A DNA stretch of 51,206 nt, filler included, from Deltaproteobacteria bacterium (GTDB lineage Bacteria; Myxococcota; JACRCW01), in assembly GCA_016218805.1 (NCBI GenBank). It is 2 parts of 2 records of this genome, joined end to end, with 100 filler letters (N's around TTAATTAATTAA, not from the genome) between each part and the next. Parts side by side here need not be neighbours in the genome. Positions count along the whole stretch, not along the records: positions 1 to 19,766 come from JACRCW010000006.1; 1 more part is not named here. One strand, given 5' to 3'. The notes under the pieces were generated by a model, which was not told the origin of the DNA, did no database searches, and was given only the letters and a program-made list of their open reading frames with translations. Shown here piece after piece: positions 54-19,866 of the stretch (positions are counted from its first letter, which is position 1; every line of letters starts with the position of its first letter). Both the position numbers and the translations under genes were made by a program.

Positions 54-65
54 GGTGCACCCGGA

Positions 66-536: not shown

Positions 537-631
537 GGTCCTGCTCCGTGGTTGCGCGGTTGGCTTGCTGCGGAAAGGCCGGGCCCGACGCCACGCGCCG
601 GGACCGGTCTCCGTCAATCACCGGCCAGGAA

Positions 632-1303: not shown

Positions 1304-1395
1304 TTCGTTTCTCCTGTTTGCGTCCACTTGGGGGGCGCACACTGTCCACTGTGGACTGCGCCGTTCTAGCTACCGGGCCTGCCGGGAGGGCGCGC

Positions 1396-1425
1396 ACGCT
1401 ACAAAAACCGCTCGTCCGTAGTCAA
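1396..1425 (-). promoter_or_regulatory. Possible sigma70-type promoter for aglRQS
   Basis: Minus strand TTGACT (1425-1420), 18-nt spacer, TAGCGT (1401-1396), about 90 nt upstream of the aglR start. Confidence 0.35.
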
Positions 1426-1510
1426 CACCCTTCCGTCCTTGTCCGTCCTGACACCTCACGACGTCCCAGGTTTCCGCCCCCGCGGGGCATCCTCCCGTTG
1501 ACGTAGGGCG

Positions 1511-2710
1511 TCAGCGCCGCAACACGTCCAGCCCCTTTACCAGGTCCCGTGAGATGTTCTTCTGGTGGGCCTCCAGCGTCCCGCCGCCGATCTCCAGCAG
1601 CTTGGCGTCCCGCCACAGGCGCTCCACCACGTATTCGCCCACGTAGCCGTAGCCGCCCAGGACCTGCATGGCGTTGTCCGCCACGTTCTTGGCCATCGTC
1701 GTCGCCACCAGCTTCACGCCGTCGCTGTCCATGCGGTTGCCGTGGTCGGACAGGCTCAGCTTGCGCGCCACGTCGTACACGTAGGCGCGCGCGGCCCGGT
1801 AGTGCGCGTAGCTCTCACCCAGGTACCGCTGCACCTGCCCAAACTCGGCGATGGGTTTGCCAAACGCTTTGCGCTCCGTGGAGTAGCGCGTCATCACCTC
1901 AATGCAACGCCGTGCGATCCCCAGGCTCATGGCGGCCAGCGTCAGGCGTTCAATCTCCAGGTTGCGCATCATGTGCAGCATGGACTCGCCCTCTTCACCC
2001 AGGCGGTTCTGCACGGGGACCACGCAGTCATCAAACACCAGTTCCGCCGTGGCGGACGCGCGCATGCCGGTCTTGTCCTTGATCTTCTGGCCCAGGCTGA
2101 ACCCCTTGAACCCCTTCTCCACCACAAAGCTGCTGATCCGGTCACCCTTGGGCGTCTGCGTGCGCGCGTAGACCAGGAACAGGTCCCCCAGGTTCTTGTC
2201 ATCCACGGCGCCGTTGGTGATCCACATCTTGCGGCCGGTGAGCAGGTAGTGATCCCCCTTGCGAACCGCGCGGGACTGCATGCCCATCACGTCGGTGCCG
2301 TAGCCCGGTTCACTCATGCACATGCCGGCGATCCATTCGCCATTGATGACCTTCTGCAGGTAGCGCGCGCGCTGATCAGCGTTGCTGTTCTGGTAGAAGT
2401 TGTTCACAAACAGCATGGTGTGCGCCAGGTAGCTGAGCGCAAACGCCGGGTCGGATGCGGACAGCTCCTCGTGCGCAATGCAAGCGGCCACCGCGTCCAT
2501 GCCCGCGCCGCCGTCCTTGTCAGACACGGTGATCCCCAGCAGCCCCAGCGGCCCCAGCTTGCGGAACAGCGGGAGGTTGAAGGTCTCGGTGCGGTTGTTC
2601 TCCAGGGCCTGCGGCTCCACCTCGCGCTCTACAAACTCGCGCACGGTGTTGCGGAGCATCTGGTGCTCCTCGGTGGGGTTGTACAGGTCAAAGTCCTGGT
2701 ACGTCGTCAT
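1511..2710 (-). CDS. Isovaleryl-CoA dehydrogenase-like acyl-CoA dehydrogenase
   Basis: MCMSEPGYGTD, KMWITNG, GMRASAT, QVLGGYGY and RDAKLLEIGGGT motifs; LSYLAHTMLFVN is typical of the IVD clade. Confidence 0.9.
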   Translation of the reverse strand: MTTYQDFDLYNPTEEHQMLRNTVREFVEREVEPQALENNRTETFNLPLFRKLGPLGLLGITVSDKDGGAGMDAVAACIAHEELSASDPAFALSYLAHTMLFVNNFYQNSNADQRARYLQKVINGEWIAGMCMSEPGYGTDVMGMQSRAVRKGDHYLLTGRKMWITNGAVDDKNLGDLFLVYARTQTPKGDRISSFVVEKGFKGFSLGQKIKDKTGMRASATAELVFDDCVVPVQNRLGEEGESMLHMMRNLEIERLTLAAMSLGIARRCIEVMTRYSTERKAFGKPIAEFGQVQRYLGESYAHYRAARAYVYDVARKLSLSDHGNRMDSDGVKLVATTMAKNVADNAMQVLGGYGYVGEYVVERLWRDAKLLEIGGGTLEAHQKNISRDLVKGLDVLRR

Positions 2711-2839
2711 CGTGCCTCCGCACCGGCGGAACGCCCGGGCGGCGCGCTCTTAGCAGCGGGCCCGGCCGGTGGGTAGGTCGAACGTCCGTCCGTCGTTTGT
2801 CCGCCGCGCGCGCGCCGGCCGGCGCGTACGCTCTCCGAC

Positions 2840-4663: not shown

Positions 4664-4664
4664 C

Positions 4665-5096
4665 TCAGCGCACGCAGCGCACGCGGTAGGTCTCAAACTT
4701 CTGGATCAGGTTGTGGGAGGTCCCGTCGGAGAAGTCGACGATCCAGCCCTTGATCTTCGGGTCCGCGCCGGGCTCCGGCAGCGCCCAGAAGTTCACCGTC
4801 GGGGTGGATGGGAACGCCACGCGGTCAATGGCGGGCTTGCCCTTGAGCGCCTCCCATACGCGGACTTTCTTGACCAGCGTGCGCAACTCGCCCACCGTTG
4901 GGAGCCGGAAGCCCCGTTCCGTGCAGTACGCCTCCGCCCGCTCCAAGGACATGTTCTCCCCGGCCTGGCGCAACCACGTGAGGTTGGTGGCGCTGTCGCG
5001 CACGGTGTCGTCGGTGAGTTCGTAGCGGGGGTCCGGCTTGGTGGGTTCACACGCCGCAAGCAGGAGGAGGCACAGGGCAAGGAGGCGCAGAGGCAT
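4665..5096 (-). CDS. DUF1566 (Lcl C-terminal, C-type-lectin-like) lipoprotein
   Basis: LLAAC lipobox; TVRDSATNLTW, A-x2-YC, FRLPTVGEL, IDRVAFP and terminal VRCVR signature. Confidence 0.85.
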   Translation of the reverse strand: MPLRLLALCLLLLAACEPTKPDPRYELTDDTVRDSATNLTWLRQAGENMSLERAEAYCTERGFRLPTVGELRTLVKKVRVWEALKGKPAIDRVAFPSTPTVNFWALPEPGADPKIKGWIVDFSDGTSHNLIQKFETYRVRCVR

Positions 5097-5119
5097 GGCC
5101 GCGCATCCTACACGGTCCC

Positions 5120-5842
5120 TCAATGCGCGGGGGGCTCCTGGATGATGCGCAGGAACGCGCGGATGCCGGTGATGACCTCCTGGTTGTCCGTCAGCCGCGC
5201 CACGCTTTCCTCAAACTTGCGCACCAGCGCCGCCATGCGCTGCTCCATCTGCGTGTCGCGCGCGGTGGTGGTCTGCTCCAGTGCGCGCAGCGACGTGAAC
5301 AACTCGCGGTACTCGCGGGCGTGTGTTTCCACCGAGTGCTGCAGCGTGTTCACCTGGCTCACCAGGGACAGGATGTCGTCGCGCGGGTAGCGGACCTCGG
5401 ACAGCAGCGTGGCAAGGCGTTCGCGCACGTGGCGGTGGTACTCCAGCGCGGGGCGCACGGCGGTGGACAGCAGGTAGAAACCACAGAACCACCACGCCAG
5501 CGTCTCCCCCGTCAGCCACGCCACCAGTGCCATGCCACCCGCGGACAACCCGTGCAGGCCCAGGCTCATCACCAGCGTCCGGCGGCGCACGCGCTCCGCC
5601 TCCGCGGCGCGGTCGTCAGGGACCACAATCCCTCGCTCGCGTGAGCGCTTCATCTCCGCCAGCACGTGCCGCGCCTGGAAGTGCAGGTTCCACGGCAGGG
5701 TCACCACCACCACCAGCCACCCCAGCAGCAGCACCCCCATGCCCACGGTGGCCACCAGCGCCACGGGGACGTCCAGGAAGAACACCGCCAGCAGGGCCGC
5801 CACAAACGTCAGCGCCGCACAACCAAGGACCAGCAATCTCAT
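5120..5842 (-). CDS. Hypothetical membrane protein with C-terminal coiled coil
   Basis: About four hydrophobic segments followed by a heptad-rich tail; ATG 5842; correct codon bias. Confidence 0.7.
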   Translation of the reverse strand: MRLLVLGCAALTFVAALLAVFFLDVPVALVATVGMGVLLLGWLVVVVTLPWNLHFQARHVLAEMKRSRERGIVVPDDRAAEAERVRRRTLVMSLGLHGLSAGGMALVAWLTGETLAWWFCGFYLLSTAVRPALEYHRHVRERLATLLSEVRYPRDDILSLVSQVNTLQHSVETHAREYRELFTSLRALEQTTTARDTQMEQRMAALVRKFEESVARLTDNQEVITGIRAFLRIIQEPPAH

Positions 5843-5963
5843 GGGCCGCCTCCCTTTCACCCGGCAGTGTCCTGCCCGGCCGTGGCGACGGCAGGGACGA
5901 TCCGTGAAACGGGCGTGAAACGGGTGCACGCGGGCGGTGGACCGTGGCATGGTTGGCCAAGGC

Positions 5964-7064
5964 ATGCGCACCTGCCCCCGCTGCAAGCTCAAATACCTGG
6001 ACAGTTTTGAGAAGTGCCCGGCAGACGGCGCGGCGCTTTCCTCCGTGGCGGCAACAGACCCCATGTTCGGGCGCGTGCTGGGCGGCCGTTACCGCCTGGA
6101 GTCCCGCATTGGCGAAGGCGGCATGGGCTGGGTCTACCGCGCCACCCGCACCACCGACGACACGCAGGTGGCGGTGAAGCTGCTCATTGCGCGCTCCGAC
6201 GAGCGCGGCCGGGAGCACCGGGAGCGGTTCCGCCGTGAGGTGGGCATGCTGGGCCGGCTGCGCCACCCCAACGTGGTGTCCATGCTGGACGCGGGCGAGG
6301 AGAACGGCCAGGCGTACATGGTCATGGAGTACCTGCAGGGGCGCACGCTGCACGACGTGGTGCCCGCCGGCGGCGTACCGGTGCGGGCGGCGGCGGACAT
6401 CATCCAGGAGGTGTGCGAAGGCCTGGAGGCGGCGCACCGCGCGGGGCTGGTGCACCGCGATCTCAAGCCGGAGAACGTGTTCATTGCGCGGCAGGCCACC
6501 GGCGTGCACGTGGTGAAGATCATTGATTTTGGCCTGGCGCGGGCCACGGACGTGGACGAGGAATCCCGGCTCACGCAGCAGGGAAAGGTCGTGGGCAGCG
6601 CCGGGTACATTGCGCCGGAGCACATCCTGGGCAGCCGGGACTTCACGCCCGCGTCAGACATCTATGCGGTGGGGGCGGTGCTGTTCTTCATGCTGGCGGG
6701 CCGGCGCCCCTATGAGGGTGACTCCGTGGGTGCGGTGATGGAGGCGCAGGTGAAGGAGCGCCTGCCGCCGCTGGGCCTGCCGCAGGGCCACCCGTCACTG
6801 GTGCTGGAGCCGGTGATCCGGCGCGCCATGTCCCGGCAACTGGACCGCCGCTTCCCCTCCACGCGGGACCTGGGCCGGACGGTGGAGGAACTGCTGCGTG
6901 CATCGCGGGGGGACCGGCCCATCACCACGGAGATTGAAGGGCTCACGGTGATCCGGCAGGTGCGGCGGCTCGGACGCTCGTGGGTGCCGCAGGTGGCGGC
7001 GGCCACCGCGGGGGCCGGCATCGGGTTCGGGCTGCTGGGGCTGGCGTGGTGGCTGCTGCGGTGA
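5964..7064 (+). CDS. Hanks-type Ser/Thr protein kinase with N-terminal Cys motif and C-terminal TM helix
   Basis: IGEGGMGWVY, VAVK, HRDLKPEN, DFG, YIAPE, SDIYAVG; N-terminal CPRC...CPADG. Confidence 0.95.
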   Translation: MRTCPRCKLKYLDSFEKCPADGAALSSVAATDPMFGRVLGGRYRLESRIGEGGMGWVYRATRTTDDTQVAVKLLIARSDERGREHRERFRREVGMLGRLRHPNVVSMLDAGEENGQAYMVMEYLQGRTLHDVVPAGGVPVRAAADIIQEVCEGLEAAHRAGLVHRDLKPENVFIARQATGVHVVKIIDFGLARATDVDEESRLTQQGKVVGSAGYIAPEHILGSRDFTPASDIYAVGAVLFFMLAGRRPYEGDSVGAVMEAQVKERLPPLGLPQGHPSLVLEPVIRRAMSRQLDRRFPSTRDLGRTVEELLRASRGDRPITTEIEGLTVIRQVRRLGRSWVPQVAAATAGAGIGFGLLGLAWWLLR

Positions 7065-7076
7065 GGCGGGGGCGGC

Positions 7077-7604
7077 TCAGGGCGCCTTGCGGGCACGGCG
7101 GGGAGTGTCTTCCTCCTCCTCCTCAACTTCTTCGCCGCCTTCCTCTTCAACCTGGTCCTGGGCCCGGTGTCCAACGCCGCCGCGGGTGAACGTGCGCCCC
7201 GCGGCCAACCCGGAGGCCACCTGCGCGCGGAATTCCGCGTTGATGTTGCTGACCGCAAACGCGTCCTCTTCCTGCCACGGCGTCTCCTCAAACGGCTGCT
7301 CGTCCTCGTCAAGGAACTGCCGGCCCCGGCGCCGCTTCTCGTGCTCCTCGTTGTCCACGGCGTACTGGTCGGAACCGCCCAGCAGTTCGCCCACCGCGCC
7401 CAGGTCCTTGCTCTTGGCCTTGCCTTTGGCTCTTACGCCGCCGGCCCCGCCCGCCTGGCCCTTGCCCTCGGCGCCCTTGGCTTCCTTGGACTCCTTGGAT
7501 TCCTTGGTCCCCTTGGTGTCCTTGGTCTCCTGGCGGGGGATGCCCTCCTGGCCCACGCGCGGCCGGATGGGGCCGCCACCACCGATTCCACCCGGGTTCA
7601 CCAT
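7077..7604 (-). CDS. Hypothetical low-complexity Lys/Glu-rich protein
   Basis: ATG 7604 (MVNPGGIGGGGP); K-x-x repeat; acidic tail; codon bias supports this frame. Confidence 0.6.
   Translation of the reverse strand: MVNPGGIGGGGPIRPRVGQEGIPRQETKDTKGTKESKESKEAKGAEGKGQAGGAGGVRAKGKAKSKDLGAVGELLGGSDQYAVDNEEHEKRRRGRQFLDEDEQPFEETPWQEEDAFAVSNINAEFRAQVASGLAAGRTFTRGGVGHRAQDQVEEEGGEEVEEEEEDTPRRARKAP
7476..7525. repeat. 9-bp tandem repeat (about 6 copies of ccttggNNN) encoding KDT-KGT-KES-KES-KEA
   Basis: ccttggcttccttggactccttggattccttggtccccttggtgtccttgg seen directly. Confidence 0.7.
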
Positions 7605-7769
7605 TGCCAGGATCCCTCGCGTCCGCACAGATCCCACGCGTGTCCGGGCGCGGGTGCAGCCGGCAGAGTCTAGCGGCGCGCCTCCCGAAAAGCACCTCCG
7701 TCCTGGCGCCACGGCGGCATGCGCGGGGTGCTCGCTCGGGCGACGCGCGACCGGCTACAACGCGGGCGC

Positions 7770-8843
7770 ATGTCGGACGACCGTCGGCGCTTTTCGCGCT
7801 TCCCGGCTTCCGTCCCGGTGCGCTGCAAGCACCGGGGCGACGTGGAGACGCTCCTCACCGAGGACGTCAGCCGGCACGGGGCGTTCCTGCTGACCGACGC
7901 GCCCAAGCCCGCCGGCACGCTCCTCCAGCTCACGTTTGACCTGCCCGGCGGGCGCGCCGTGGAGTCGCTGTGCGTGGTGAAGCGCGCGCTGGGGAAGGAT
8001 GAACCGGGCGGGCCGGGCATGGGCGTGGACTTCTTCGCGCTGGAGCAGGACGACAAGAGCGCGTGGGAGGTGTTTGTGGCTGAGCGTGACGCCGCGTTCA
8101 CCCCGCCGCCCCCGCCGGAGCACGCCGCGGTGCTCACGCTGCACGCGCCGGTGGAAAGCCCGCCCCCCATGGAGGATCTGCCGCTGCCGGTGCCCGCCGA
8201 ACACGCCCGCGCCGCCCCCACCGCGCGCGCCTCCGCGTGCTTCCTGCTGCGCCTGCGTGACGTGGACGCGCTGCGGCAGTTCCACGCCCGTGACGTGACG
8301 CAGGGCATCACGTTCATCCACACACCCGTGCTGCGGGACCCGGGGGAGCGCGTGGAGGTGGTGCTGATCCACCCGGAGACGGACGAGGAACACCGCCTCC
8401 CGGCCCAGGTGGCCCAGGCGCGCGAGGACCCCGCGGGTGACCACGGGCTGTCCATCCGGTTTGACCCGCTCAGCGAGGACGCGCACGTCACGCTGCTCAC
8501 GTTCATTGAGACGGGTTCGGACATGCTGGCGCCGGCGCCGGACCCGGGCGAAGACCGCCTGCGGGACCTGCGCCGCGCGGTGGCCGACACGCCGGACGAT
8601 GCGCAGGCGCACCTGGCGCTGGGGGTGCACCTGCTGGAGAACCGGCGGGAACCGCGTGCGGCGGTGACCACGCTGCTGCGCGCCCTGGAGCTGGACCCCG
8701 CGCTGCCGGACGCACACCGCCGCCTGCACCGCGCGTACATCCGCCTCAAGGACGGCAAGCGCGCGGCCGCGCACCTGCGGGTGGCGCTGGCGCTGGAGAC
8801 CGTGGGCTGGGACGCCATCACGGAGGAAGGCGTCAAGCTGTGA
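7770..8843 (+). CDS. Tandem PilZ-domain protein with C-terminal TPR
   Basis: First domain has RRFSR (RxxxR) and DVSRHG (DxSxxG); second PilZ-like unit DVTQGITFIHT...GLSIRF; TPR-like AHLALG...ALELDP. Confidence 0.85.
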   Translation: MSDDRRRFSRFPASVPVRCKHRGDVETLLTEDVSRHGAFLLTDAPKPAGTLLQLTFDLPGGRAVESLCVVKRALGKDEPGGPGMGVDFFALEQDDKSAWEVFVAERDAAFTPPPPPEHAAVLTLHAPVESPPPMEDLPLPVPAEHARAAPTARASACFLLRLRDVDALRQFHARDVTQGITFIHTPVLRDPGERVEVVLIHPETDEEHRLPAQVAQAREDPAGDHGLSIRFDPLSEDAHVTLLTFIETGSDMLAPAPDPGEDRLRDLRRAVADTPDDAQAHLALGVHLLENRREPRAAVTTLLRALELDPALPDAHRRLHRAYIRLKDGKRAAAHLRVALALETVGWDAITEEGVKL

Positions 8844-8904
8844 ACGCGGACCTTGCGCGCGCGGCCACCGTCCGCCAGATCTGCCGGCCCCGGGGAGTCC
8901 CACC

Positions 8905-9879
8905 TTGCCGCTGACCATCCTCTACCCCTCAGACGTGGCGCACGCCGTGGACCTGCACGGCGGCGCGGACGGTACCGAATACAAAGCCGGCGGCACGGAC
9001 GTGGTGGACCGGCACCACCAGGGCATCCTTGCGCCCCGCACGCTGGTGGACCTGGGACGCCTGGGCGTTCTGCGCGGCGTGGAGCAGCGCGGGGACGGCT
9101 GGCGCATTGGCGCGCTGACCACGCTGCTGGAGGTGGCCGGGCATGAGGGCCTGGGCCGGGAACACCCCGTGCTGCGCCAGGCGTGTGACCGCACCGCCAC
9201 CCCGCAGGTGCGCGCGATGGCGACGTTGGGTGGGTCGCTGCGCCAGAAGGTGCGCTGCCCGTACTTCCGCCACCCGGACTTCACGTGCTGGCGCAAGGGC
9301 GGCCAGGAGTGCTTTGCGCGCCCCGGGGACAACCACTGGCACGCCATCTGGGACAATGACACGTGCGCGGCGGTCCACCCCTCCACGCCGGCGGCCGCGC
9401 TGCTGGCGCTGGACGCGCAGCTGGACGTGCACTTCCCCGGCGGGGACCAACGCACCGTGGACATGCGCGCGTTCACCACCTTTGACGTGTCCGATGCGAT
9501 GGCGGACGACGCGCTTCCCGACGCGGCCCTGGTGCTGGGCGTGCGCATCCCGCGGCCCGCCCGCCCCACCCGGCAGGCGTATGAGCGCGCCAGCGCGCGG
9601 CACCTGGCGGATTGGGCGGACGTGGAGACCGCCGTGGTGCTGCAGATGGACGGCGACGTCGTAGCGGACGCCCGCGTGGTCCTGGGCGCCGTGGCGCGGC
9701 GGCCCCGGCGCGCCGTGGAGGTGGAGCAGCGCCTCAACGGCCACCGCCTGGACGCGGCGGTGATTGCGGACGCGTCCGCCCACGCGGCGGACGGCGCCAC
9801 GCCGCTGCCGCACAACGGCCACAAGACCCGCCTGGCCTGCAACACCGTCCAGGCCACCTTGGAGAGGCTGACCTCATGA
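8905..9879 (+). CDS. Molybdo-flavoenzyme FAD-binding subunit (PaoB/YagS/XdhB type, with the [4Fe-4S] insert)
   Basis: AGGTD FAD motif; IGALTTL; ATPQVRAMATLGG; RCPYFR..C..KGG..C..C cluster insert; VVLGAVA C-terminal domain. Confidence 0.9.
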   Translation: MPLTILYPSDVAHAVDLHGGADGTEYKAGGTDVVDRHHQGILAPRTLVDLGRLGVLRGVEQRGDGWRIGALTTLLEVAGHEGLGREHPVLRQACDRTATPQVRAMATLGGSLRQKVRCPYFRHPDFTCWRKGGQECFARPGDNHWHAIWDNDTCAAVHPSTPAAALLALDAQLDVHFPGGDQRTVDMRAFTTFDVSDAMADDALPDAALVLGVRIPRPARPTRQAYERASARHLADWADVETAVVLQMDGDVVADARVVLGAVARRPRRAVEVEQRLNGHRLDAAVIADASAHAADGATPLPHNGHKTRLACNTVQATLERLTS

Positions 9880-10103
9880 GCGCACAACCCGCGCACTGGT
9901 GCCGCCGCCTGCGGTGGAAGACCTATTCGGTGGACCAGGAGGACCCGGCGCGCGTGGGCCAGGTCTTTGCGGAGGGCGCTACCCTGTTCACCTGCCTGGC
10001 CACCACGCACCCGGTGGGCCCGGATGACGGCGCCGTGGCCCCCGAATGCTGCGCGCCCGACCGCAGCTGCTACCAGCCACACCCGCGCCTCGCTTGCGTG
10101 TGA
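9876..10103 (+). CDS. 75-aa Cys-rich microprotein, translationally coupled to the FAD subunit
   Basis: ATGA overlap at 9876-9879; MSAQPAHWCRRLRWK...FTCLATTHPVGPDD...ECCAPDRSCY; six Cys. Confidence 0.7.
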   Translation: MSAQPAHWCRRLRWKTYSVDQEDPARVGQVFAEGATLFTCLATTHPVGPDDGAVAPECCAPDRSCYQPHPRLACV

Positions 10104-10116
10104 ACATTTGTTCAGT
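10100..10116 (+). promoter_or_regulatory. LexA (SOS) box
   Basis: GTGAACATTTGTTCAGT contains the palindrome TGAACA-TT-TGTTCA (GAAC-N4-GTTC core). It matches 15/17 positions of the Myxococcus consensus CTRHAMRYBYGTTCAGS as I recall it, and lies 14 nt before the radical SAM ATG. Confidence 0.75.
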
Positions 10117-10130
10117 ATGTTCGGGCGTGC

Positions 10131-11140
10131 ATGCGCCCGGTCAGCAACCCGCCCAATCCGTGGAACAGCACGCACGTGGACTGGCTGGGGGACCCGCCGC
10201 CGGCCCGCCTGACCGTGTTTGAGGAAGACGCCCGCTCCATCCTCTCCGAGAACGACAGTCCCGACGTGGGCTTCCGCTGGTCGGTGAACCCGTACCGCGG
10301 GTGTTTCCACGCGTGCGCGTACTGCTACGCGCGGCCTACGCACCAGTATCTGGGCTTTGGGGCGGGGACGGACTTTGAACGGCGCATTGTGGCCAAGGTG
10401 AACGCGGCGGCGCTGCTGGAGCAGGCGTTCAACCGGCGGTCCTGGCTGGGCGAGCGGATTGCGTTCTCCGGTGTGACGGACTGCTACCAGCCGCTGGAGG
10501 CGCACTACGGGCTCACGCGCAGTTGCCTGGAGGTGTGTGCGCGGTTCCGCAACCCGGTGGGCATCATCACCAAGGGCGCGCTGGTGCGGCGTGACGTGGA
10601 CGTGCTGCAACAGCTCCACCGCACCGCGGCCGTGCGGGTGCACCTGTCCATCCCGGTGGCGGATGACGACACCGCGCGCATCATCGAGCCGGGCGCATCG
10701 CTCCCGTCGCAACGGTTTGCGGCCATGGAGGCGCTGGCGCGCGCGGGGGTTCCGGTGGGATTGCGGTGGCGCCGGTGCTGCCGGGGCTGACGGAGAGCCA
10801 GGTGGTGCCGCTGCTGGAGCGCGCCGCGGCGGCGGGGGCCATCTCCGCGTTCATGATCCTGCTGCGCCTGCCCGCAGAGGTCCTCCCCGTCTTCACCGAG
10901 CGCATCGACGCGGGCCTCAGCCCGGAGCGCGTGCGGCACATCTGGTCGTCGCTGCGGGAGCTGCGGGACGGGCGGGAGAACGTCAGCACGTTTGGCGGGC
11001 GGATGACGGGCCAGGGGCCGCGCTGGGAAGTCCTGGAGCGCACCTTCAACCTGGCGTGCCGGCGCCTGGGACTCAACGCCACCCCGGAGGCGGAGCCCGC
11101 CACCTTCAGCCGCCCCGGTCAGCAACTCAGCCTGCTGTGA
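10131..11140 (+). pseudogene. PA0069/Rv2578c-family (SplB-like) radical SAM protein with a single frameshift (true pseudogene or sequencing error)
   Basis: NPYRGCFHACAYCYAR (CxxxCxxC), GTDFERRI, SGVTDCYQPLE. One extra G in the GGG run at 10757-10759 joins 10131..10790 to 10766..11140 as GVPVGIAVAPVLPGL; ends QLSLL. Confidence 0.85.
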
Positions 11141-11153
11141 TACAACGCCCTGC

Positions 11154-12296
11154 ATGCCCCCTGACGACGACGTCATCTACCTGGACCATAACGCCACCAC
11201 GCCCGTGTTGCCGGAGGTGGTGGACGCGGTGACCGACGCGCTGCGGGAGGCGTGGGGCAACCCCTCCAGCGCGCACGTGTTCGGCCGGCGCGCCCGGGAC
11301 GCGGTGGAGGGCGCGCGCGCCCAGGTGGCCGCGCTGTTGAACGCGTCCCCCTCAGAGATCCTGTTCACGTCCGGCGGCACGGAGGCCAACAACCTGGCCA
11401 TCCGCGGCGTCACGGCTGCGCGCCCGGACCGCCGGCACGTGGTCACCAGCACCATTGAACACCCCGCCACCGCGCGGCCCGCGGCGCTGTTGGAGTCCAC
11501 CGGGTGGCGTGTGACGCGTGTGGGCGTGGATGGCATGGGGCGGTGCCTGGAGGGTGACGCGGAGCAGGCCATCACCGCGTCCACGGCGCTGGTCAGCGTG
11601 ATGCACTCCAACAATGAGACCGGCGTGATCCAGCCCATTGCGGCCCTGGCGGCCATCGCACATCGTCACGGCGCCACCGTCCACACCGACGCGGCGCAGA
11701 GCGTGGGCAAGGTGCCGGTGGACGTGAACGCGTTGGGCGTGGATCTGCTCAGCGTCGCCGGGCACAAGCTGTACGCGCCCAAGGGCGTGGGCGCGCTGTT
11801 CGTGAGGACGGGAACGCCGCTGGCGCCGCTGCTGCTGGGCGCCGGGCACGAAAGGGGCCTGCGCCCCGGGACGGAAAACGTGGCCTCCGTGGTAGGGCTG
11901 GGCCTGGCCTGCCAGCTGGCCGCGCGCGGCCTGGCCGCCGAGGCTACCCGCGTGGCCGCACTGCGGGATCGGCTGGCGTCCGCGCTCCGGGCCGCCGTGC
12001 CCGGCCTGGTCATCAACGGTGAGGGCGCCCCCCGCCTCCCCAACACCCTCAACGCCTGCTTCCCGCGCGTCGGCGGCACAGCGCTGCTGGCCGCCTGCCC
12101 GCAGCTCGCCGCGTCCACCGGGAGTGCCTGCCATGACGGGCAGGAGTCCGCCTCACCGGTGCTGCGCGCCATGGGCGTGGCAGAAGAGATTGCCGTGGGC
12201 GCCGTGCGCCTCACGCTGGGGCGGGGGACCACGGCGGAGCACGTGGACCGGGCCGCGGCCAAGCTTTCCGCGGCTTGGAAGGCCCTCACCGCGTGA
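11154..12296 (+). CDS. Group I cysteine desulfurase (IscS/NifS family)
   Basis: YLDHNATTP, GNPSS, FTSGGTE, NNETG, HTDAAQ, GHKLYAPKG (PLP Lys), STGSAC (catalytic Cys). Confidence 0.95.
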   Translation: MPPDDDVIYLDHNATTPVLPEVVDAVTDALREAWGNPSSAHVFGRRARDAVEGARAQVAALLNASPSEILFTSGGTEANNLAIRGVTAARPDRRHVVTSTIEHPATARPAALLESTGWRVTRVGVDGMGRCLEGDAEQAITASTALVSVMHSNNETGVIQPIAALAAIAHRHGATVHTDAAQSVGKVPVDVNALGVDLLSVAGHKLYAPKGVGALFVRTGTPLAPLLLGAGHERGLRPGTENVASVVGLGLACQLAARGLAAEATRVAALRDRLASALRAAVPGLVINGEGAPRLPNTLNACFPRVGGTALLAACPQLAASTGSACHDGQESASPVLRAMGVAEEIAVGAVRLTLGRGTTAEHVDRAAAKLSAAWKALTA

Positions 12297-12304
12297 TGCC
12301 CACA

Positions 12305-12506
12305 AAGCGAAGGGGAGCACAAAGCTCCCCTTGTCCGGCCGCCAGGTTTGGTTTTGATCGGAGAAGCCCTAGGGCACAATCTCCCTCGTTCCATCAGGCC
12401 GGTTTATCAGCGTGTCACCGCATCAGGACGTCGAACTCGTCGACTTCATAACGATGTCACCTCTGCTTGCAGCCACCTCCTTGTCGATTGAACTGCCGAC
12501 GGAGTT
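12305..12506 (-). ncRNA. Candidate ~200-nt small RNA or micropeptide (MKSTSSTS, 12449-12423) transcript
   Basis: Markedly lower GC than the flanks; bounded by a strong promoter and a terminator; contains AAGGAGGT, GAGGTGA-N7-ATG and several short hairpins; no long ORF. Confidence 0.55.
12310..12332. terminator. Intrinsic terminator-like hairpin, possibly bidirectional
   Basis: AAGGGGAGC-ACAAA-GCTCCCCTT perfect 9-bp stem between convergent units; the U-tracts are weak. Confidence 0.65.
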
Positions 12507-12511
12507 ACTGA

Positions 12512-12539
12512 AATCTACTCTTCGGATCGATCGTGTCAA
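12512..12539 (-). promoter_or_regulatory. Sigma70-type promoter driving the candidate sRNA
   Basis: Minus strand TTGACA (12539-12534), 16-nt spacer, TAGATT (12517-12512). Confidence 0.7.
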
Positions 12540-12579
12540 GCCGGATCTCCGGGCGGTTTCTACGACGTCAGTCCGATGG

Positions 12580-13464
12580 TCACAGCCCGTTGCGGCACCC
12601 CACGAACGACAGGGGCGCGCCGGCACCTTCGGGGGCTTGCCAATAGCCGTGACGAGGCGCGTCGTACGCGACAGCTTCGCCTTGGATTTCCAGTGCAAAC
12701 GGCACGGAGCCGCGCGTGGCTTGCACCAGGTCATCCACGTCACCCGACGGCAGCAGGAACTCCCACGCGCCCAGGTAGGTGCGAACCAGCAGCCGCGTGT
12801 TGTCCGGGAACAGTGATGCATCCGTGACGCTGGCCGGCAGCCCGCGTGAGGGTCCGCGGGACACGTCCAGCGTGCCGCGGGCCTCCATCACCGTGGTGAC
12901 GCCCGCAGACCAACCCGGGGCCGCGTAGAGCCGCGCCATCCCGTCCGTGCGCTTGGTCAGGATGAGCGGCACACCTTCCCGGCTCACCACCAGCGCTTCG
13001 GCGTCCTGGGCACCGTCGGGGTACTGCAGCCGGACCTCCTCCACCGGCAGAGCTGCGCGCGGCGCTGCCGCTTCCGGTTCCGGCAGGACCCACAGCGTGA
13101 CGTGATCACGCGCCGCGGCGTTGTCCCCAATGTCCGCCACGTACACGCAGGTGCCCGCTGGGCACGGCCCCACGCTGACGGCCTCCCAGTCCGTATTGGT
13201 GGCGGCAAGCTCCAGCCGGGCGGTGACATGCGCGCCGAGGTCCACGGCAAACAGCGTGGGCGTGTGGCCACTGTCCTGCACCGCCCACAGGATGCCGGGG
13301 TTGCGGCGGGACAGCGCCAGGCCGCTCAGCTCGGAGAGGGCGTCGTCGTCCAGGCGCCCGTGCCAGGCGGGCGGCTGCCAGAACGCGCAGGGTTCAGCCG
13401 TCCCTCCCCCACAGGCCGCGCCGGCCAGCAGCCGCGCGGCAAGGCCAGGGCGAGCGCCGTTCAT
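12580..13464 (-). CDS. Secreted/lipoprotein beta-propeller-like hypothetical protein
   Basis: LAGAAC lipobox-like leader; ELSGLALS, QDSG, DWEA, VADIGDN, DAEAL and QGEAV acidic blade motifs; ATGA overlap with the GAF gene. Confidence 0.75.
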   Translation of the reverse strand: MNGARPGLAARLLAGAACGGGTAEPCAFWQPPAWHGRLDDDALSELSGLALSRRNPGILWAVQDSGHTPTLFAVDLGAHVTARLELAATNTDWEAVSVGPCPAGTCVYVADIGDNAAARDHVTLWVLPEPEAAAPRAALPVEEVRLQYPDGAQDAEALVVSREGVPLILTKRTDGMARLYAAPGWSAGVTTVMEARGTLDVSRGPSRGLPASVTDASLFPDNTRLLVRTYLGAWEFLLPSGDVDDLVQATRGSVPFALEIQGEAVAYDAPRHGYWQAPEGAGAPLSFVGCRNGL

Positions 13465-14216
13465 TCCGCGCGTGCGGGCAGGCGCTGCTGCGGGGCCAGC
13501 AGGCTCATCAGCTGTTCCAGCGTGCGCAGCTTGCGCTCCATGCGGCTGTACTGGCGCGCGTTCAGCAGCGCGGTGGCGGCGTGCGCGGACAGCAGGTGCA
13601 GCAGTTCCACGTCCGCCTGGCCCAGGCGCGTCTTGTGCTCCAGCAGCTTGAACAGCACCACGGCTCCAACAACACGGCCGGACACCGCCAGCGGCACCGC
13701 AGCCAGGATGCTCTCCCGCGGGACGCCTTCCTCAGCGTGCACAAACGGCTCCCCGCTCACCACCACCGCCCCCAGCACGCCCTGCGCCTCGGCGCGGCCC
13801 GTTGGGTAGTGCTTCTGCGCTTCTTCCCCGGCCACCACCGCCAGGTCATCCGCTTCCTCGTCCCGCAGCAGCACCGCAAACTCCTCCGCGCCCACGAAGT
13901 TGATCACCACCTCCTTGATGATTCCGACGACACGCTCCGGGTCCAGCGTGGCGTGCAGCTGGTAGCTGGAGACGTACATGTTCATCATGGCGGCGTTCAT
14001 CTCCTCCGCCTCGGCCAACCGGTCCGCCAGCTCCAGGTTCTCCTGGCTCAGCCGCAGCACCGTCTCCGCGTCGTCCTGGCCGGCGGTGACCGCGGGGGCC
14101 GGCGCCGCCGCCGCCAGGCGCGTCACCAGCTCCGCCATGGCCCGCGCGTCATCACCCGCGCGGGCGAGCCGCTCCAGCAGTTGCCGCGCCAGCTCCTTGG
14201 GGTCGTCGGATGACAC
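13461..14216 (-). CDS. Coiled-coil plus GAF domain protein
   Basis: N-terminal coiled coil; YVSSYQLHATLD...NFVGAEEF...AVPL...VVG...ELLHLLSAHAATAL GAF pattern; GTG start estimated. Confidence 0.8.
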   Translation of the reverse strand: MSSDDPKELARQLLERLARAGDDARAMAELVTRLAAAAPAPAVTAGQDDAETVLRLSQENLELADRLAEAEEMNAAMMNMYVSSYQLHATLDPERVVGIIKEVVINFVGAEEFAVLLRDEEADDLAVVAGEEAQKHYPTGRAEAQGVLGAVVVSGEPFVHAEEGVPRESILAAVPLAVSGRVVGAVVLFKLLEHKTRLGQADVELLHLLSAHAATALLNARQYSRMERKLRTLEQLMSLLAPQQRLPARAE

Positions 14217-14278
14217 GCGCTTGTTCTCCGCGTTGCGATTCGTGGCGCCCCGGCGGGCGCACGTCAAGGTGGCAGGCG

Positions 14279-16048
14279 TCAGTAGACGCGCCGTACCTCG
14301 GCGCCGTTGTAGTAGTGGCGCAGGATGTCCCGGTAGCTGTGCCCCGCCTCCGCCATGCCCACCGCGCCCGTCTGGCACATCCCCACGCCATGCCCAAACC
14401 CGCCCCCGCGGAACACCCAGGCCGTCACCGGCCCGCCGGGCGCGCCGCGCTCCTGGTCCAGTACAAACAGCCCGCTGGGCAGATTGTTGAACAACCGCCG
14501 CACCGGCAGCTCCCGGTGGACAAACGCGCTGCCCCGGCTCCCTTCCACCTTGAGCGTGCGCACCCGCCCGGACCGCCCGCGCGCCTCCACCGTCAGCGCC
14601 ACCAGCTCGCCCACGTCCAGCTCTTTGATGCGCTCCTGCGCCTCGTCACGCGTGAAGCGGCGCGTCCAGCGGAAGCGGTCCTTGCGTCCCAGCGTGGCTT
14701 TCTGGCACCACGCGGGCGGGGGCTCGTCAATGAAGCGGCGCAGCGCGTCCTCGCGGGAGAGGTCAGCCAGCGCCAGCAGGCCCGGGTGCGCCACCAGGCG
14801 TGAGGGGTCCGGCGTCATGGACGGCGGCGGCAGCATCCGCCCCGCGTGCTCCACCGGTGGCACCGCGGCGGCCAGCAGCTCCGTCGCCCCCTCGTAGTCG
14901 GCCCGTCCGCGCAGCGCCGCGGCGGGGGGGACTTCCCAGACCACGTCGTTGTCCTCGCTGCGCCCGCCGCACATGGCCGAATACACGCTGTCCACCAGCC
15001 GCCCGCCCAGAAACGCCATCTCACCGCGCGTCTGCTCCACCGCCTGCGTGCACGCCGGCTTCTCGCTCCCCAGCCCGCTGTAGACCTGGCAGTGCTGCTC
15101 GTCACACAGCACGTACGGGTCGGTGCCGTGGCGGATGCCCACCTTGGCAAAGACCTCGCCGCGCGCGGTCACCGCCTGCGCCTTGAGCGCCTCCAGCGGT
15201 GAGCTGGGGAAGATTTCCGACGGGACAATGCCCGCCAGCAGCCGGTCCACGTCCAGCGCGTTGACCGCGGCCAGCTTCCCGCGCGCATCCACCGCCACCA
15301 CCACGCGGTCCCCGTAGGACCGGTCCACCACGCCGTGGTTCTTGTACCCCTGGCTGTGCTCCACCTTCTCCACGGTGATGGGGTCGTCGCCCGCGTGCGT
15401 TTCCACCACGTCCACCGCGGTGGCCAGCGTAGCGCCGTTGTCATCCACCAGGGCCAGGCGCCCGCGCGGCAGGTCCATGAGCTCGTCATGCACGCGGGGG
15501 CGCACGCCGGTCTTGCGGTACAGCCGCTGCATCAGCGCATCCAGCTCCGCCTCCCGCGCGGGGGCCGCCGCCACCAGGGACGCGCGGTTGTCCACCACCG
15601 TGCCCTCCACGCCGTAGATGCCCCCCACCTCAAACAGCCTGACCTCCTCAGGGATTTCCGCGCGCCACCGTGTGATGAGCTCGTCCCGGCGCAGGCGCTC
15701 ATCCCGCTCCAGCGTCTCCAGCACCGCCCAGCGGCGCACCCGCGCCGGCGCGCCATCCTTGAGCCGGACCACCAGCCGCCGCCCCGGCGGGAGCTGCAGC
15801 GTCTTGGCGCCCTCCTTGTCCCGGAAGCGCACGCGCAGCGTCCCCGGCGTGCGCAGCGCCACTTCGGCCTGCCCGTCCATGAGCCCCACCAGCACCACCG
15901 GCCGCCCCGCCCCGTCAAACCGGAAGCGGTGATCAAACAGCGCGGGCAGGTCCAGCGGTTCGCTGTCAAACGGGTTGGGCGGCGCGGGCGCGGCGGCCAA
16001 CAAGAGGAACAGCGCGGGATAGAGCGGGGCACGTCGCACGCGGCGCAT
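14279..16048 (-). CDS. SpoIID/LytB-domain peptidoglycan lytic transglycosylase-like protein
   Basis: Signal peptide; GIVPSEIF...EALKAQAVTAR, CQVYSG, GFGHGVGMCQTGA, ILRHYY. Confidence 0.9.
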   Translation of the reverse strand: MRRVRRAPLYPALFLLLAAAPAPPNPFDSEPLDLPALFDHRFRFDGAGRPVVLVGLMDGQAEVALRTPGTLRVRFRDKEGAKTLQLPPGRRLVVRLKDGAPARVRRWAVLETLERDERLRRDELITRWRAEIPEEVRLFEVGGIYGVEGTVVDNRASLVAAAPAREAELDALMQRLYRKTGVRPRVHDELMDLPRGRLALVDDNGATLATAVDVVETHAGDDPITVEKVEHSQGYKNHGVVDRSYGDRVVVAVDARGKLAAVNALDVDRLLAGIVPSEIFPSSPLEALKAQAVTARGEVFAKVGIRHGTDPYVLCDEQHCQVYSGLGSEKPACTQAVEQTRGEMAFLGGRLVDSVYSAMCGGRSEDNDVVWEVPPAAALRGRADYEGATELLAAAVPPVEHAGRMLPPPSMTPDPSRLVAHPGLLALADLSREDALRRFIDEPPPAWCQKATLGRKDRFRWTRRFTRDEAQERIKELDVGELVALTVEARGRSGRVRTLKVEGSRGSAFVHRELPVRRLFNNLPSGLFVLDQERGAPGGPVTAWVFRGGGFGHGVGMCQTGAVGMAEAGHSYRDILRHYYNGAEVRRVY

Positions 16049-16134
16049 TGGTCGCAGACCGGTTCACCCCCAGGCAACCTCAACCATTGCTTCAACGCTT
16101 GCGGCGGCGGCGGCGTGCGTGCCTCAATGGCGTC

Positions 16135-17109
16135 GTGACCCACATCCACAACTCTGCGCGGGGGCGCGCCGCCTTCGCCCCCCTGGCCGCACTTGCGTGC
16201 GGCGCCCTGGCCGTGCCGCTGCAGAAGGGGTGCGCGTCCGTGCCCGTGGTGACGCGCCCCTGGTCACCGCCGCCCGCCAGCGCGGATGACCGCGTGGGCG
16301 TGTGTCCCATCATCAGTGCGCTGTCCACCACGCCGCACCTGGTGCTGGAGGGGGAAGGCGGCCTGGACGACGTGGTGCTGCCGGTGGCGAGCTTCCTGGT
16401 GCGCGCCGGCGGGAACCTGTTCCTGGTGGACGCGGGCGTGGCGGCGGCGGAGCGGCGCGCGCTCCCCGCGGGCGCGGCGGACCTGGTGATGGGGTTTGCG
16501 TACAGCCCGGCTGCGTCCGTGGCCGCCCAGCTGGCCGGCGCCGGCATCCGCTCCGCGCAGCTGGCCGCGGTGCTGCTCACCCACGCGCACCTGGACCACG
16601 CCGGTGAGCTGGAGGACCTCCCGGGCGTCCCCGTGGTCCTCAGCGAACCGGAGGCGCAGTCCCTGGGCGCGCTCCCCGCGCCCGTGCGCGATTTCTCGAC
16701 GGGGCGCGCCGCGGCGGCGTGGCAACTGCTGGCTGCGCGCATGCGCGTGGTGCGCTTCCCGGAGGGACCGCTGGCGGCGGTGGACATCCTGCCGGGCGGC
16801 GCCATGTCGCTGCGTTTCACGCCGGGGCACACGCCGGGTTCCATGAGTGTGGTGGTCTCGTCAGCCGGGGGGACGGAGGTCATGCTGGGGGACGCCGCGC
16901 TGTCCGCGCGACACGTGCGTGACCTGGTGAAGAAGGGCCCGGGCGGGCGCGTGCTGGACGCGGACCCGGAGCTGGCATGGCGGACGGTGAACCGGCTGCA
17001 CGCGTGGATGGACGGGCACCCGGACTGGCGCCTGCGCGCCGCCCATGACGAGCAGGCCGTCCGTGAGCGCTTCCGCTTCCGCGCCTGCGCGCGCGACCTG
17101 CTGCGCTGA
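16135..17109 (+). CDS. Exported metallo-beta-lactamase-fold hydrolase (AHL-lactonase-like subgroup)
   Basis: LVDAG, THAHLDHAG (HxHxDH), TPGHTPG, GDAA, AHD; hydrophobic N-terminus with Cys; start uncertain. Confidence 0.8.
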   Translation: MTHIHNSARGRAAFAPLAALACGALAVPLQKGCASVPVVTRPWSPPPASADDRVGVCPIISALSTTPHLVLEGEGGLDDVVLPVASFLVRAGGNLFLVDAGVAAAERRALPAGAADLVMGFAYSPAASVAAQLAGAGIRSAQLAAVLLTHAHLDHAGELEDLPGVPVVLSEPEAQSLGALPAPVRDFSTGRAAAAWQLLAARMRVVRFPEGPLAAVDILPGGAMSLRFTPGHTPGSMSVVVSSAGGTEVMLGDAALSARHVRDLVKKGPGGRVLDADPELAWRTVNRLHAWMDGHPDWRLRAAHDEQAVRERFRFRACARDLLR

Positions 17110-17110
17110 G

Positions 17111-18883
17111 TCAGAACATCTTGGGCCGGTACTTGTGGGCCTTGATGACCACCTTCTCCTCCTCCTGGCCGCGCGAAAAGAACCCGCCCTTCTTCTTGCC
17201 CCGCTTGGGGTCCTTGTCCCGCGCCGCTTCCGCCCAGGCCAGCACCTTGCCCAGGTTGTTCTTGAAGGTCGGGTTGTCCGGCTCCAGTTCAATGGCGCGC
17301 TGCAGCGCCTCGGTGGCGCGGTCAAAGTCCTTCAGCCGCGTGGCCAGGACCACGCCCAGCCGGTTGTGCAGCGCGCCCACCTCGCCGTTGGCTTCCACCG
17401 CCTGCTCCAGCAACCGCACCGCCTCCTTGAACTCGCCGCGCCCTTCGGCCACCTGCGCGCTCTCAAACAGCTCCACCTCACGCGCCTTGCCCTTGGCCGG
17501 CTCCGCCGCCGCCACCGCCATCTTCTCCCATTCATCCAGCGCCTCTTTGTAGCGCGGCTCACCGGCGTCATAGATGACCGCCAGCTTGGCGTTCATACGC
17601 GCGCTGGCCACGTTCCCGGAGGCCAGGTCCTTGAGCGCCTGCTCAAAGATCTTGGCCGCCTTGTAGCGCTGCTCATGACTGATCCCGTCCGTGCGGCGCG
17701 GCGGCAGCGCGCGCGCCGGCCTGGCGGCCTCCTCCGCGGGCGGCGCCCCGCGCGCGTCCAACGCCAGCAACCCCGGCGGCCCCTCCACCGGCGCCGGCGT
17801 GGGCGGCGGCGCCTCCATGGGGAGAATCGCGTCGTCCGGGAGTTCCTCCACCAGGCTGGGCTCCCGCAGGTGCACGGGCGGCGGCGGCGCGGCTTCCGGC
17901 TCCTCCACCGGTTCACCGCGCGCGGCGGACCGCTCCCGCTCCAGCGCCGCCGTCATGGCCCCCGCGGGCAGTTCCGCCGTGAGCGGCAGGGCGGCAAACC
18001 CGGCCACGTCCGTGGGCGGCGGCGTCGCCAGTTCTTCGTTGCTGGGCGGGGGTGCGGGCGGCGGCCGCCGCGCCTCCAGCTCATCCAGCCGGACAATGTG
18101 CGAACCCTGCCGCGCCCGCGCGTCCTCCTCCCGCGTCAGGGTCTCCGGCGGCGGCGCGGTGCGCGCCCCCGGCTTGTCCACCACCTTCTTGCGCCGCCCG
18201 GACACGGAGGCCGGCGGCGGGGGCGGCGGCGGCGGCGCCACCACGGCGGTTGCCTCCGCGGCGGGCTCCGGGCGCGCTTTGCCCTTCTTGCCGCGCACCG
18301 GTGGCGGCGGCGGCGGCCGGCGCTTCTGGGACACCTCGTCCCAGGTCACCTTGGTGGCGCGCGGCTTGTCCCCCGGCGCCTCCTGGAACAGCCGCCCCGC
18401 CATGCGGATGACGCCCTTGTCCGCCAGCGTGGCCAGCGTGGTCTTCACGTCCAGGTCATCCATCCCGGACTTGCGGCGCAGCCGGTCCACCGGGCTGCGC
18501 CCGTCCACAAACGCCAGCAGGTGCCGCTCAAACGGCGTCAGCCGCAACCCGGAGGGCTCCACGCCCTCCACCAGCGCGGGGATGGCGTCCGGCGCCAGCA
18601 GCGCCTGGCTGGCACCGGAGACGTAGAAGCGCGCGTGCGTGACCTCCTTGTGCACCAGGGCGGTTTCGCCCGCGTCAAACGTTTCCAGGTTGCCGGACCC
18701 GTCCCCCAGCAACAGCGCGTCACCAAAGTCATGCCCCAGCTTCATCCCGCCCTTGCCGGGCCGGTGGTCCTTTTCGTCGTCGGTGATGTCGTCGCCCAGG
18801 AAGCTGGCGTCCAGGATGAACTCACAGTGGCCGCAGATGACGGCGTCCTGGTCCACCGCGCGTCCGCACTTGGGACAGAGCAT
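17111..18883 (-). CDS. Zinc-ribbon + winged-helix-like + Pro-rich linker + TPR protein
   Basis: CPKC...CGHC; LTPFERHLLAFVDG...LADKGVI; long Pro-rich region; C-terminal TPRs (HNRLGVVLA, AIELEPDN). Confidence 0.8.
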   Translation of the reverse strand: MLCPKCGRAVDQDAVICGHCEFILDASFLGDDITDDEKDHRPGKGGMKLGHDFGDALLLGDGSGNLETFDAGETALVHKEVTHARFYVSGASQALLAPDAIPALVEGVEPSGLRLTPFERHLLAFVDGRSPVDRLRRKSGMDDLDVKTTLATLADKGVIRMAGRLFQEAPGDKPRATKVTWDEVSQKRRPPPPPPVRGKKGKARPEPAAEATAVVAPPPPPPPPASVSGRRKKVVDKPGARTAPPPETLTREEDARARQGSHIVRLDELEARRPPPAPPPSNEELATPPPTDVAGFAALPLTAELPAGAMTAALERERSAARGEPVEEPEAAPPPPVHLREPSLVEELPDDAILPMEAPPPTPAPVEGPPGLLALDARGAPPAEEAARPARALPPRRTDGISHEQRYKAAKIFEQALKDLASGNVASARMNAKLAVIYDAGEPRYKEALDEWEKMAVAAAEPAKGKAREVELFESAQVAEGRGEFKEAVRLLEQAVEANGEVGALHNRLGVVLATRLKDFDRATEALQRAIELEPDNPTFKNNLGKVLAWAEAARDKDPKRGKKKGGFFSRGQEEEKVVIKAHKYRPKMF

Positions 18884-18973
18884 CCCGGGCCACCCGCCAA
18901 CTCAGGGCCCGCCGACGGGGCGGGCCGCAACAGGCTGTGCAGTGTGCCGCCCCCGGCCCGGCGGGTCCACCTT

Positions 18974-19531
18974 TCAGGCGGGTTCGCCTTCCTTGACGCC
19001 CACGGGCACCGGCTCCCGCTGCGGTTCCAGCAGCTCTGCCGGCGTCACCCGCCGGTAGGACCGCGGCACCGCGGGCATCCAATAGCGCTGCGTGATGCGC
19101 GGCGGCGCCAGCAGGAAGTCAATCTTCTGCGGCGTGAAGGTCCCCTGCAGCATGGTGCCCTGCTCCACCAGCTCCAACCGCAACTCCGCGAACACGTCCC
19201 CGTCCAGTTCCTTGGCCAGCGGTTCAGGGAAGTTGGCGCGCTTGAGCGCCACCACGCCAAAGTCCCTCCGCGTCAACTTGAGCTGCCGCCCCCACATCAG
19301 CCCGCTGTACTCCTGCCAGCCGCCGGTCACGTCCCGGCGGCCGCGGACAAACGGACCCAGTTGGCCCAGCGTGAGGCGTTCGCGCGGGGCCTTGTCCTCA
19401 GCATTGTCCGGGATGCGCTCCCACGTCCCGCCGACGTTGAAGAGGAACCCCACCAGCAGGCCCAGTGCCACGGCTGCCAGCAGCAGCGCGGGGACGGCCA
19501 GCTTGAGCACCGTGTCGTCCATGGAGACCAT
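18974..19531 (-). CDS. Hypothetical protein with N-terminal TM anchor
   Basis: Single hydrophobic helix followed by a beta-rich domain; GC3 bias in this frame. Confidence 0.65.
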   Translation of the reverse strand: MVSMDDTVLKLAVPALLLAAVALGLLVGFLFNVGGTWERIPDNAEDKAPRERLTLGQLGPFVRGRRDVTGGWQEYSGLMWGRQLKLTRRDFGVVALKRANFPEPLAKELDGDVFAELRLELVEQGTMLQGTFTPQKIDFLLAPPRITQRYWMPAVPRSYRRVTPAELLEPQREPVPVGVKEGEPA

Positions 19532-19766
19532 TACCCGCCGTCGTGGCGGAGCGGTGGACCTACCACGGAGCGCGCCCCGGGGCATATGCCAGTCACCGCG
19601 GCAGGTGGGCAGCGTCCGGGACGTGCGACCTGCCAGCTGACCCGGCGCGACGTGCGGGGGGGAGCAGGTCAGACCTGGGGGGGGGAGGGACGCGGCGGAG
19701 GGGGGATGGGACGCCGCGGAGCGGGGGATGGGACGCCGCGGAGCGGGGGATGGGTCCCGGCGCAGC

Positions 19767-19866
19767 NNNNNNNNNNNNNNNNNNNNNNNNNNNNNNNNNN
19801 NNNNNNNNNNTTAATTAATTAANNNNNNNNNNNNNNNNNNNNNNNNNNNNNNNNNNNNNNNNNNNN
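19767..19866. other. Assembly gap / contig-joining linker
   Basis: 44 N + TTAATTAATTAA (stops in all six frames) + 44 N. Confidence 0.97.

Follow-up and report, generated by a model that had tools for sequence, protein, structure and literature searches.

What, if anything, is transcribed from the 283 nt between two convergent genes at positions 12297-12579 of the window, the whole 51,206-nucleotide stretch of DNA from a Deltaproteobacteria bacterium (Myxococcota) that was analysed here? An earlier note on this DNA had read the minus strand of the gap as a stand-alone transcription unit, encoding either a novel small RNA or a micropeptide. Every motif listed in that note is indeed in place, and in the following we describe how each of them compares with chance and with the rest of the genome.

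The source genome has a size of 6.43 Mb in 170 contigs, is 92% complete and has a GC content of 70.2%. DNA of this genome is present in groundwater metagenome runs; the 4 runs found all consist of DNA contigs, with no RNA run among them. Positions 1-19766 of the window are one entire contig (C166), which is divided from the next contigs by runs of N at 19767-19810 and 19823-19866, so the window is a composite of separate contigs rather than continuous DNA. Sampling of the lineage is poor, with one other genome of the same family and two more of the class in the genome set searched. The remainder of the phylum includes a large family, f11, which we take to be Myxococcaceae-like and whose genomes are 9-13 Mb in size. 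The gene map used throughout is a rough one of our own, with 5133 genes that cover 90% of the genome.

To the left of the gap, on the plus strand, lies a NifS/IscS-like cysteine desulfurase gene (11154-12296; Aminotran_5, 2.3e-76), which scores 438 bits with the NifS model, below its equivalog cut-off of 530.75. To the right, on the minus strand, a propeller-like gene of 294 amino acids (12580-13464) ends with its stop codon at 12580. This protein has no Pfam or NCBIfam family, and beta-propeller clusters are indicated for it by atlas leads. It is the last gene in a minus-strand run of three, consisting of a SpoIID-like, a GAF-domain and the propeller-like gene. Compared with their relatives, both the desulfurase and the 294-residue protein are full length. 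Further along the plus strand, a radical SAM gene of the PA0069 family (10131-11140) is split into two overlapping ORFs, 10131-10790 and 10766-11140, which correspond to profile positions 29-220 and 222-347 of 348; the split reflects either a frameshift or an error of assembly near 10766-10790.

The gap itself, to which no strand is assigned, has a GC content of 0.562. As the earlier note had observed, it is less GC-rich than its surroundings, with values of 0.53-0.57 against 0.65-0.79 in the flanks. Among the 143 convergent gaps of at least 150 nt in this genome it has the lowest GC content, and among 1111 gaps of any kind the third lowest. Two of the other convergent gaps at the bottom of that ranking, in second and fourth place, have tRNA genes inside; the one in third place is 1,942 nt long and has no Rfam match.

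On the minus strand a sigma-70-type promoter-like site, TTGACA-N16-TAGATT, was confirmed at 12539-12512. It matches the consensus at 10 of 12 positions, and its occurrence is above chance, with a match of at least 10/12 arising in 0.86% of 20,000 dinucleotide shuffles of the gap (P 0.0086). The predicted transcription start, 6-7 nt past the -10 hexamer, would be at 12505-12506, where there is no start codon. The site is unique within positions 10000-15000, for which the shuffle mean is 0.3. In the whole genome, counting both strands, there are six sites of at least 10/12, none of them better than 10/12, and out of 838 convergent gaps this is the single one with a site of at least 9/12.

How much such a match is worth can be judged from all 1837 intergenic gaps of the genome. 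Five intergenic sites reach at least 10/12, compared to 2.25 +/- 1.2 in dinucleotide shuffles, and 33 reach at least 9/12, compared to 21.6 +/- 4.9. Thus about 45% of the intergenic matches of at least 10/12 are expected by chance. Because the GC content of the gap is low, the local chance of 0.0086 is about seven times the per-gap average of 2.25/1837. Three of the five intergenic sites of at least 10/12, the one at 12539-12512 included, face a gene end. Of 56 intergenic sites genome-wide, 42 point toward a gene start, 10 toward a gene end and 4 toward a contig end, and the sigma-70 consensus has predictive value in this genome. In 6 of the 42 start-facing sites the -10 hexamer ends exactly 7 nt ahead of the predicted start codon, a distance that points to leaderless mRNAs as a common type in this organism. 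Another 10/12 site was seen outside the window, at C85:18814-19000, followed first by what appears to be the 3' half of a tRNA of the initiator type and next by a strong hairpin with a T run; in our reading either an integration scar or an unannotated RNA may lie here.

At the other end of the gap, the perfect 9-bp terminator-like stem described earlier was confirmed at 12332-12310. The hairpin, which as a DNA feature belongs to neither strand, is GC-rich and has arms at 12310-12318 and 12324-12332 with a 5-nt loop. It also exceeds chance: a perfect hairpin of at least 9 bp was found in 0.5% of 5,000 shuffles of the gap (P = 0.005), and its fold has a z-score of -3.25. Genome-wide, such hairpins occur at a density of 636 per Mb in intergenic DNA versus 67 per Mb in genic DNA, a roughly tenfold difference. 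The hairpin begins 13 nt past the stop codon of the desulfurase, and at this distance the desulfurase gene alone explains its presence. In the 10 nt beyond the stem there are four T on the minus side and one on the plus side; gene-end hairpins of this genome have a mean of 1.85 T in 10 nt, and 19 out of 120 have at least four. The terminator scan left the hairpin out because its T-run rule (5 T in 8) failed, and the GC-rich stem-loop of an intrinsic terminator is present at 12310-12332. The hairpin is probably the terminator for both converging units. On the minus strand transcription would then end here, and the mRNA of the 294-residue protein would have this hairpin as its terminator. The 249 nt of the gap beyond the hairpin are needed by neither flanking gene.

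Promoter-like site and hairpin have the same orientation, and together with their spacing they fit the stand-alone minus-strand unit of about 200 nt that the earlier note had proposed. With a probability of roughly 0.4, we read the gap as an operon tail that would give rise, from a promoter of its own, to a lineage-specific non-coding RNA some 200 nt long. The motifs stand in this order and are rare, and from them we infer that the promoter fires and that its product may have some function. The gap would be the untranslated tail of the minus-strand run of SpoIID-like, GAF-domain and propeller-like genes, a tail with a sigma-70-type promoter of its own. Started at about position 12505, transcription would yield a non-coding RNA of about 200 nt, which would begin with a short 5' stem-loop and end at the 9-bp hairpin, and the same hairpin would close the converging desulfurase gene. 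In its layout the unit would correspond to a 3'-end small RNA that is transcribed from a separate promoter and has a terminator in common with the mRNA.

Nearly as likely as a small RNA is an inert, weakly constrained AT-rich spacer or long 3' tail, perhaps with lost or foreign remnants, in which the promoter-like site arose by chance and gives rise to spurious transcription at most, while the hairpin simply terminates two converging genes. AT-biased mutation lowers the GC content of unconstrained DNA, and AT-rich DNA readily yields promoters. The chance share of the 10/12 matches given above fits this reading, as does the raised local chance that comes with the low GC content. A desulfurase gene ending 13 nt away accounts fully for the hairpin, and the length of the gap is not exceptional for its class, with 82 of the 838 convergent gaps at least this long. 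Against an inert spacer stands the combination of a promoter-like site of at least 9/12, found in no other convergent gap, with the lowest GC content of the class, and the fact that promoter, 5' stem and hairpin share one orientation. Nor was any trace of a decayed gene found: a 38-residue frame described below has two matches only, both to repeat proteins, and both flanking genes are complete.

The fold of the candidate RNA bears on the choice between these two readings. The claim of a structured RNA in the earlier note is not supported, the fold being at the level of shuffled sequences except for the two end hairpins. The whole RNA of 207 nt has a z-score of -0.86, with 39 of 200 shuffles folding equally well, and a repeat of the test gave -0.53. 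The plus strand has a z-score of -0.65 and the middle of the candidate RNA, 45-175 nt, one of -0.4 to -0.6. The power of this test is limited, because the fragment of the genome's own tmRNA reaches a z-score of only -0.94. An interior that folds like shuffles favours the inert spacer. Two of the inverted repeats noted earlier, CUGC-AA-GCAG and GCCC-UA-GGGC, cannot form as written because their loops would be 2 nt long.

The folds that stand out are the 5' stem-loop and the terminator, and no others. In the 5' stem-loop (12477-12504, minus strand), ACUCC and GUCG are paired with CGAC and GGAG in both the MFE and the centroid structure. It contains part of the SD-like AAGGAGGU and has a z-score of -2.26 when folded alone. 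The 5' stem-loop and the terminator are positioned where a stable small RNA would carry them. The composition of the candidate RNA points in the other direction: its GC content is 0.565, versus 0.645-0.685 in the known RNAs of this genome, so the candidate is more AT-rich than, and in composition unlike, a typical RNA gene of this genome, which again suits a spacer.

Searches for relatives also count for the inert spacer, as no conservation, paralogue or family was found in them. In a BLAST search of 41 genomes (40 relatives and the source genome) the stretch was found in its own genome only, in a single copy, and a BLAST search of 400 other genomes of the phylum, 172 of them in family f11, gave no homologue. 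Eight of these 400 genomes have short matches of 23-37 nt, to differing parts of the query and with per-genome E-values of 3e-4 to 0.01. The collection of homologues envisaged in the earlier note thus came back empty, with BLAST in the phylum genomes and with nhmmer in the downstream regions described below. Neither phages nor plasmids nor the 1836 other gaps of the source genome contain a similar sequence, and a scan of the GTDB genomes with the pattern of the 5' stem returned 92 matches with no similarity outside the pattern.

We additionally followed the 294-residue gene, whose relatives were found in 79 of the 201 phylum genomes, its own genome counted. The nearest relative, from the same family (genome G001), shares 47% identity with it, and the gene that converges on this relative is histidine-kinase-like. 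In family f11 the gene next to the relative is co-oriented and, in our reading of its translated start, appears FtsH-like. None of 103 regions downstream of relatives of this gene resembles the gap by blastn or nhmmer. The G001 gap could not be aligned with the one studied here; its 9/12 promoter-like site lies on the opposite strand, and there is none in the like orientation. A MAFFT block common to the two gaps was rejected, as its local alignment scores equal those of shuffles (P 0.57-0.78). At L003:1343-1400, in a patch that is locally rich in AT, the G001 gap has an imperfect, roughly 11-bp hairpin.

A metagenome scan for the 294-residue protein gave nothing above about 52% identity over a segment. 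Among metagenome contigs there are relatives of the stretch with 87% identity (run X1) and about 96% identity (run X4). In the 87%-identical relative, the end of a contig falls on the 30-mer 12497-12526, a segment that includes both the -10 hexamer and the predicted start. Contigs of the main strain also break there, suggesting that this 30-mer is exactly common to both, and the sharing is a weak hint in support of the promoter and start. Run X4 contains two contigs of 151 nt, one covering 12304-12448 with 4 differences and the other 12455-12578 with 5 differences and 1 gap; the flanks are barely covered.

It is unlikely, in our estimate, that the promoter serves to produce antisense RNA. The promoter would then be real and the hairpin leaky on the minus strand, and transcription would read on into the 3' portion of the desulfurase gene, whose expression it would lower by collision or RNA pairing. 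The promoter does face the end of the desulfurase gene from a distance of 216 nt, and U tails are rare on the hairpins of this genome, with the mean of 1.85 T in 10 nt mentioned above and 4 here. The stem, however, is perfect, GC-rich and 9 bp long, with its z-score of -3.25, and its T tail is better on the minus than on the plus side.

The coding potential of the unit was considered as well, since the earlier note had described an 8-codon ORF, MKSTSSTS (12423-12449, minus strand), 7 nt downstream of the SD-like GAGGTGA (12463-12457). Both are present, at chance level, and a gene for a small protein or leader peptide is improbable. Such a gene would consist either of MKSTSSTS behind GAGGTGA or of a 38-residue frame from TTG at 12539. 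The spacing between GAGGTGA and the ATG is good, and the frame stays open down to 12423 from a point upstream of 12539. The TTG at 12539 is that of TTGACA itself and has a GGAG 7 nt upstream. The micropeptide is weakened by the codon score of the 38-residue frame, -0.20 per codon, which is below the 1st percentile of 0.10 in the 5133 predicted genes. Nor is the GC content at codon positions 1, 2 and 3 gene-like, with 0.37, 0.55 and 0.61 in the frame versus 0.76, 0.56 and 0.83 in the neighbouring gene. An exhaustive search of 1.84 billion proteins with the frame gave two matches, each with an E-value of 2.5e-4, to long proteins that contain RLDFSNETVS-type repeats and align in several stretches; we regard these matches as probably due to chance.

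A leader peptide does not fit either, because there is no co-oriented gene downstream that it could control, and a leader-peptide attenuator was rejected as the minus-strand DNA downstream is antisense to the desulfurase gene. Reading the UGA after codon 8 as selenocysteine was also rejected: the sole nearby hairpin has 3 bp and begins 1 nt past the UGA, a position that does not have the spacing of a SECIS element. ARAGORN detected one tRNA-SeC among 71 tRNAs in the genome.

Upstream of this ORF, the 'perfect SD' of the earlier note, AAGGAGGT, is present on the minus strand at 12482-12475, where no start codon follows at 4-10 nt. It carries no special signal. There are 200 copies of AAGGAGGT in the genome and 2 of them precede predicted starts; AAG-GAG-GTG can be interpreted as a frequent Lys-Glu-Val codon run in GC-rich coding DNA. 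The SD-mimic reading is not supported. A strongly expressed, lineage-specific RNA of about 200 nt whose AAGGAGGUG and GAGGUGA, presumably perfect complements of the 3' end of 16S rRNA, make it a ribosome decoy, or a dual-function RNA that also directs the 8-residue peptide, is a very improbable reading.

Coming back to a small RNA with its own promoter, possible partners and targets were searched for in the genome. Neither Hfq nor CsrA was found in the 92%-complete genome, so the RNA, if real, would act without them. The idea of a protein sponge thereby has neither of these two proteins as a partner, and a sponge of the CsrB/RsmY type in particular was rejected, as the CsrA it would bind was not found in the 92%-complete genome. 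An informal count of ours gave five GGA motifs in the 207 nt, roughly as many as chance would produce. Exact complementarity of 9-14 nt to the 5085 start regions is at or below that of shuffles, and duplex folding with targets produced unrealistic hybrids with long loops.

The statement that the candidate is unlike known RNA families held up in a cmscan-type check against Rfam, in which nothing reached a gathering score. With the 4227 models of Rfam 15, the whole window has 0 matches at the gathering threshold. In E-value mode, sroE (Rfam: RF00371) is the sole match with E <= 0.01 in the region 12200-12700, all others having E >= 1.6. The sroE match is on the plus strand at 12302-12358 and has 23.2 bits against a gathering score of 51, with the hairpin and T run as the only aligned parts and 51 model positions skipped. 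We therefore do not count the stretch as a member of sroE. No match to 6S RNA (Rfam: RF00013) was found genome-wide at E <= 1 with a model that was positive in only 5 of 14 control genomes. A 6S-like rod was rejected, as the MFE structure has several branches and the pairing of the 5' end is local rather than with the 3' end. The candidate is not the tmRNA, RNase P RNA or SRP RNA of this genome, whose genes were detected with the family models on other contigs, at C101:40989-41327, C160:21051-21180 and C68:3794-3886, respectively. The tmRNA and RNase P genes, which are outside the window, are cut by contig ends, and this is probably why ARAGORN made no tmRNA call. A retron msr-msd was rejected as well, with no RT domain in the 17 ORFs between 5120 and 19531 that were scanned with Pfam.

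If the transcript is real, it would be a first small-RNA candidate for a deep and almost unsampled branch of the phylum, and another small RNA built into the tail of an operon. For a candidate with no conservation or target found, the value lies mainly in marking a site worth examining when RNA data or close relatives are at hand. The more useful result is the genome-wide calibration, according to which chance is expected to account for about half of the promoter matches of this quality, and neither the internal hairpins nor the SD motifs rise above chance level.

Besides sroE, three known systems can be compared with this locus. Hairpin terminators that two convergent genes have in common are bidirectional terminators. 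The hairpin at 12310-12332 resembles them in its perfect 9-bp GC-rich stem, 13 nt past one stop codon and facing the other transcript, and differs from them in its weak U tract, the T count per 10 nt being 4 for the minus and 1 for the plus side.

The second system is Pxr, the developmental sRNA of Myxococcus, for which PMC5684412 and PMC10217877 describe three stem-loops, SL1 and SL2 being conserved across myxobacteria. The candidate differs from Pxr in that its matches, in 8 of 400 phylum genomes, are chance-level stretches of 23-37 nt and in that it has no Rfam match. It is comparable to Pxr as a candidate small RNA in the phylum that contains family f11, and as one that would act without Hfq.

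The third system is that of the 3'-UTR small RNAs. Those of 'type I', such as DapZ and MicL, have their own promoter. The class is treated in PMC7821165, 10.1101/2024.10.25.620293 and PMC7038943. The locus described here differs from the type I RNAs in that the comparison is built on sequence features, with no Hfq, no target or seed and no conservation found. It shares with them a position behind a same-strand mRNA gene, at its 3' end: past the stop codon at 12580 follow the promoter-like site at 12539-12512 and the hairpin at 12332-12310, so that the unit is downstream of a same-strand CDS and ends at what would be the terminator of its mRNA. Likewise, the terminator hairpin would be common to the mRNA and the small RNA, and a product of about 200 nt would be expected.
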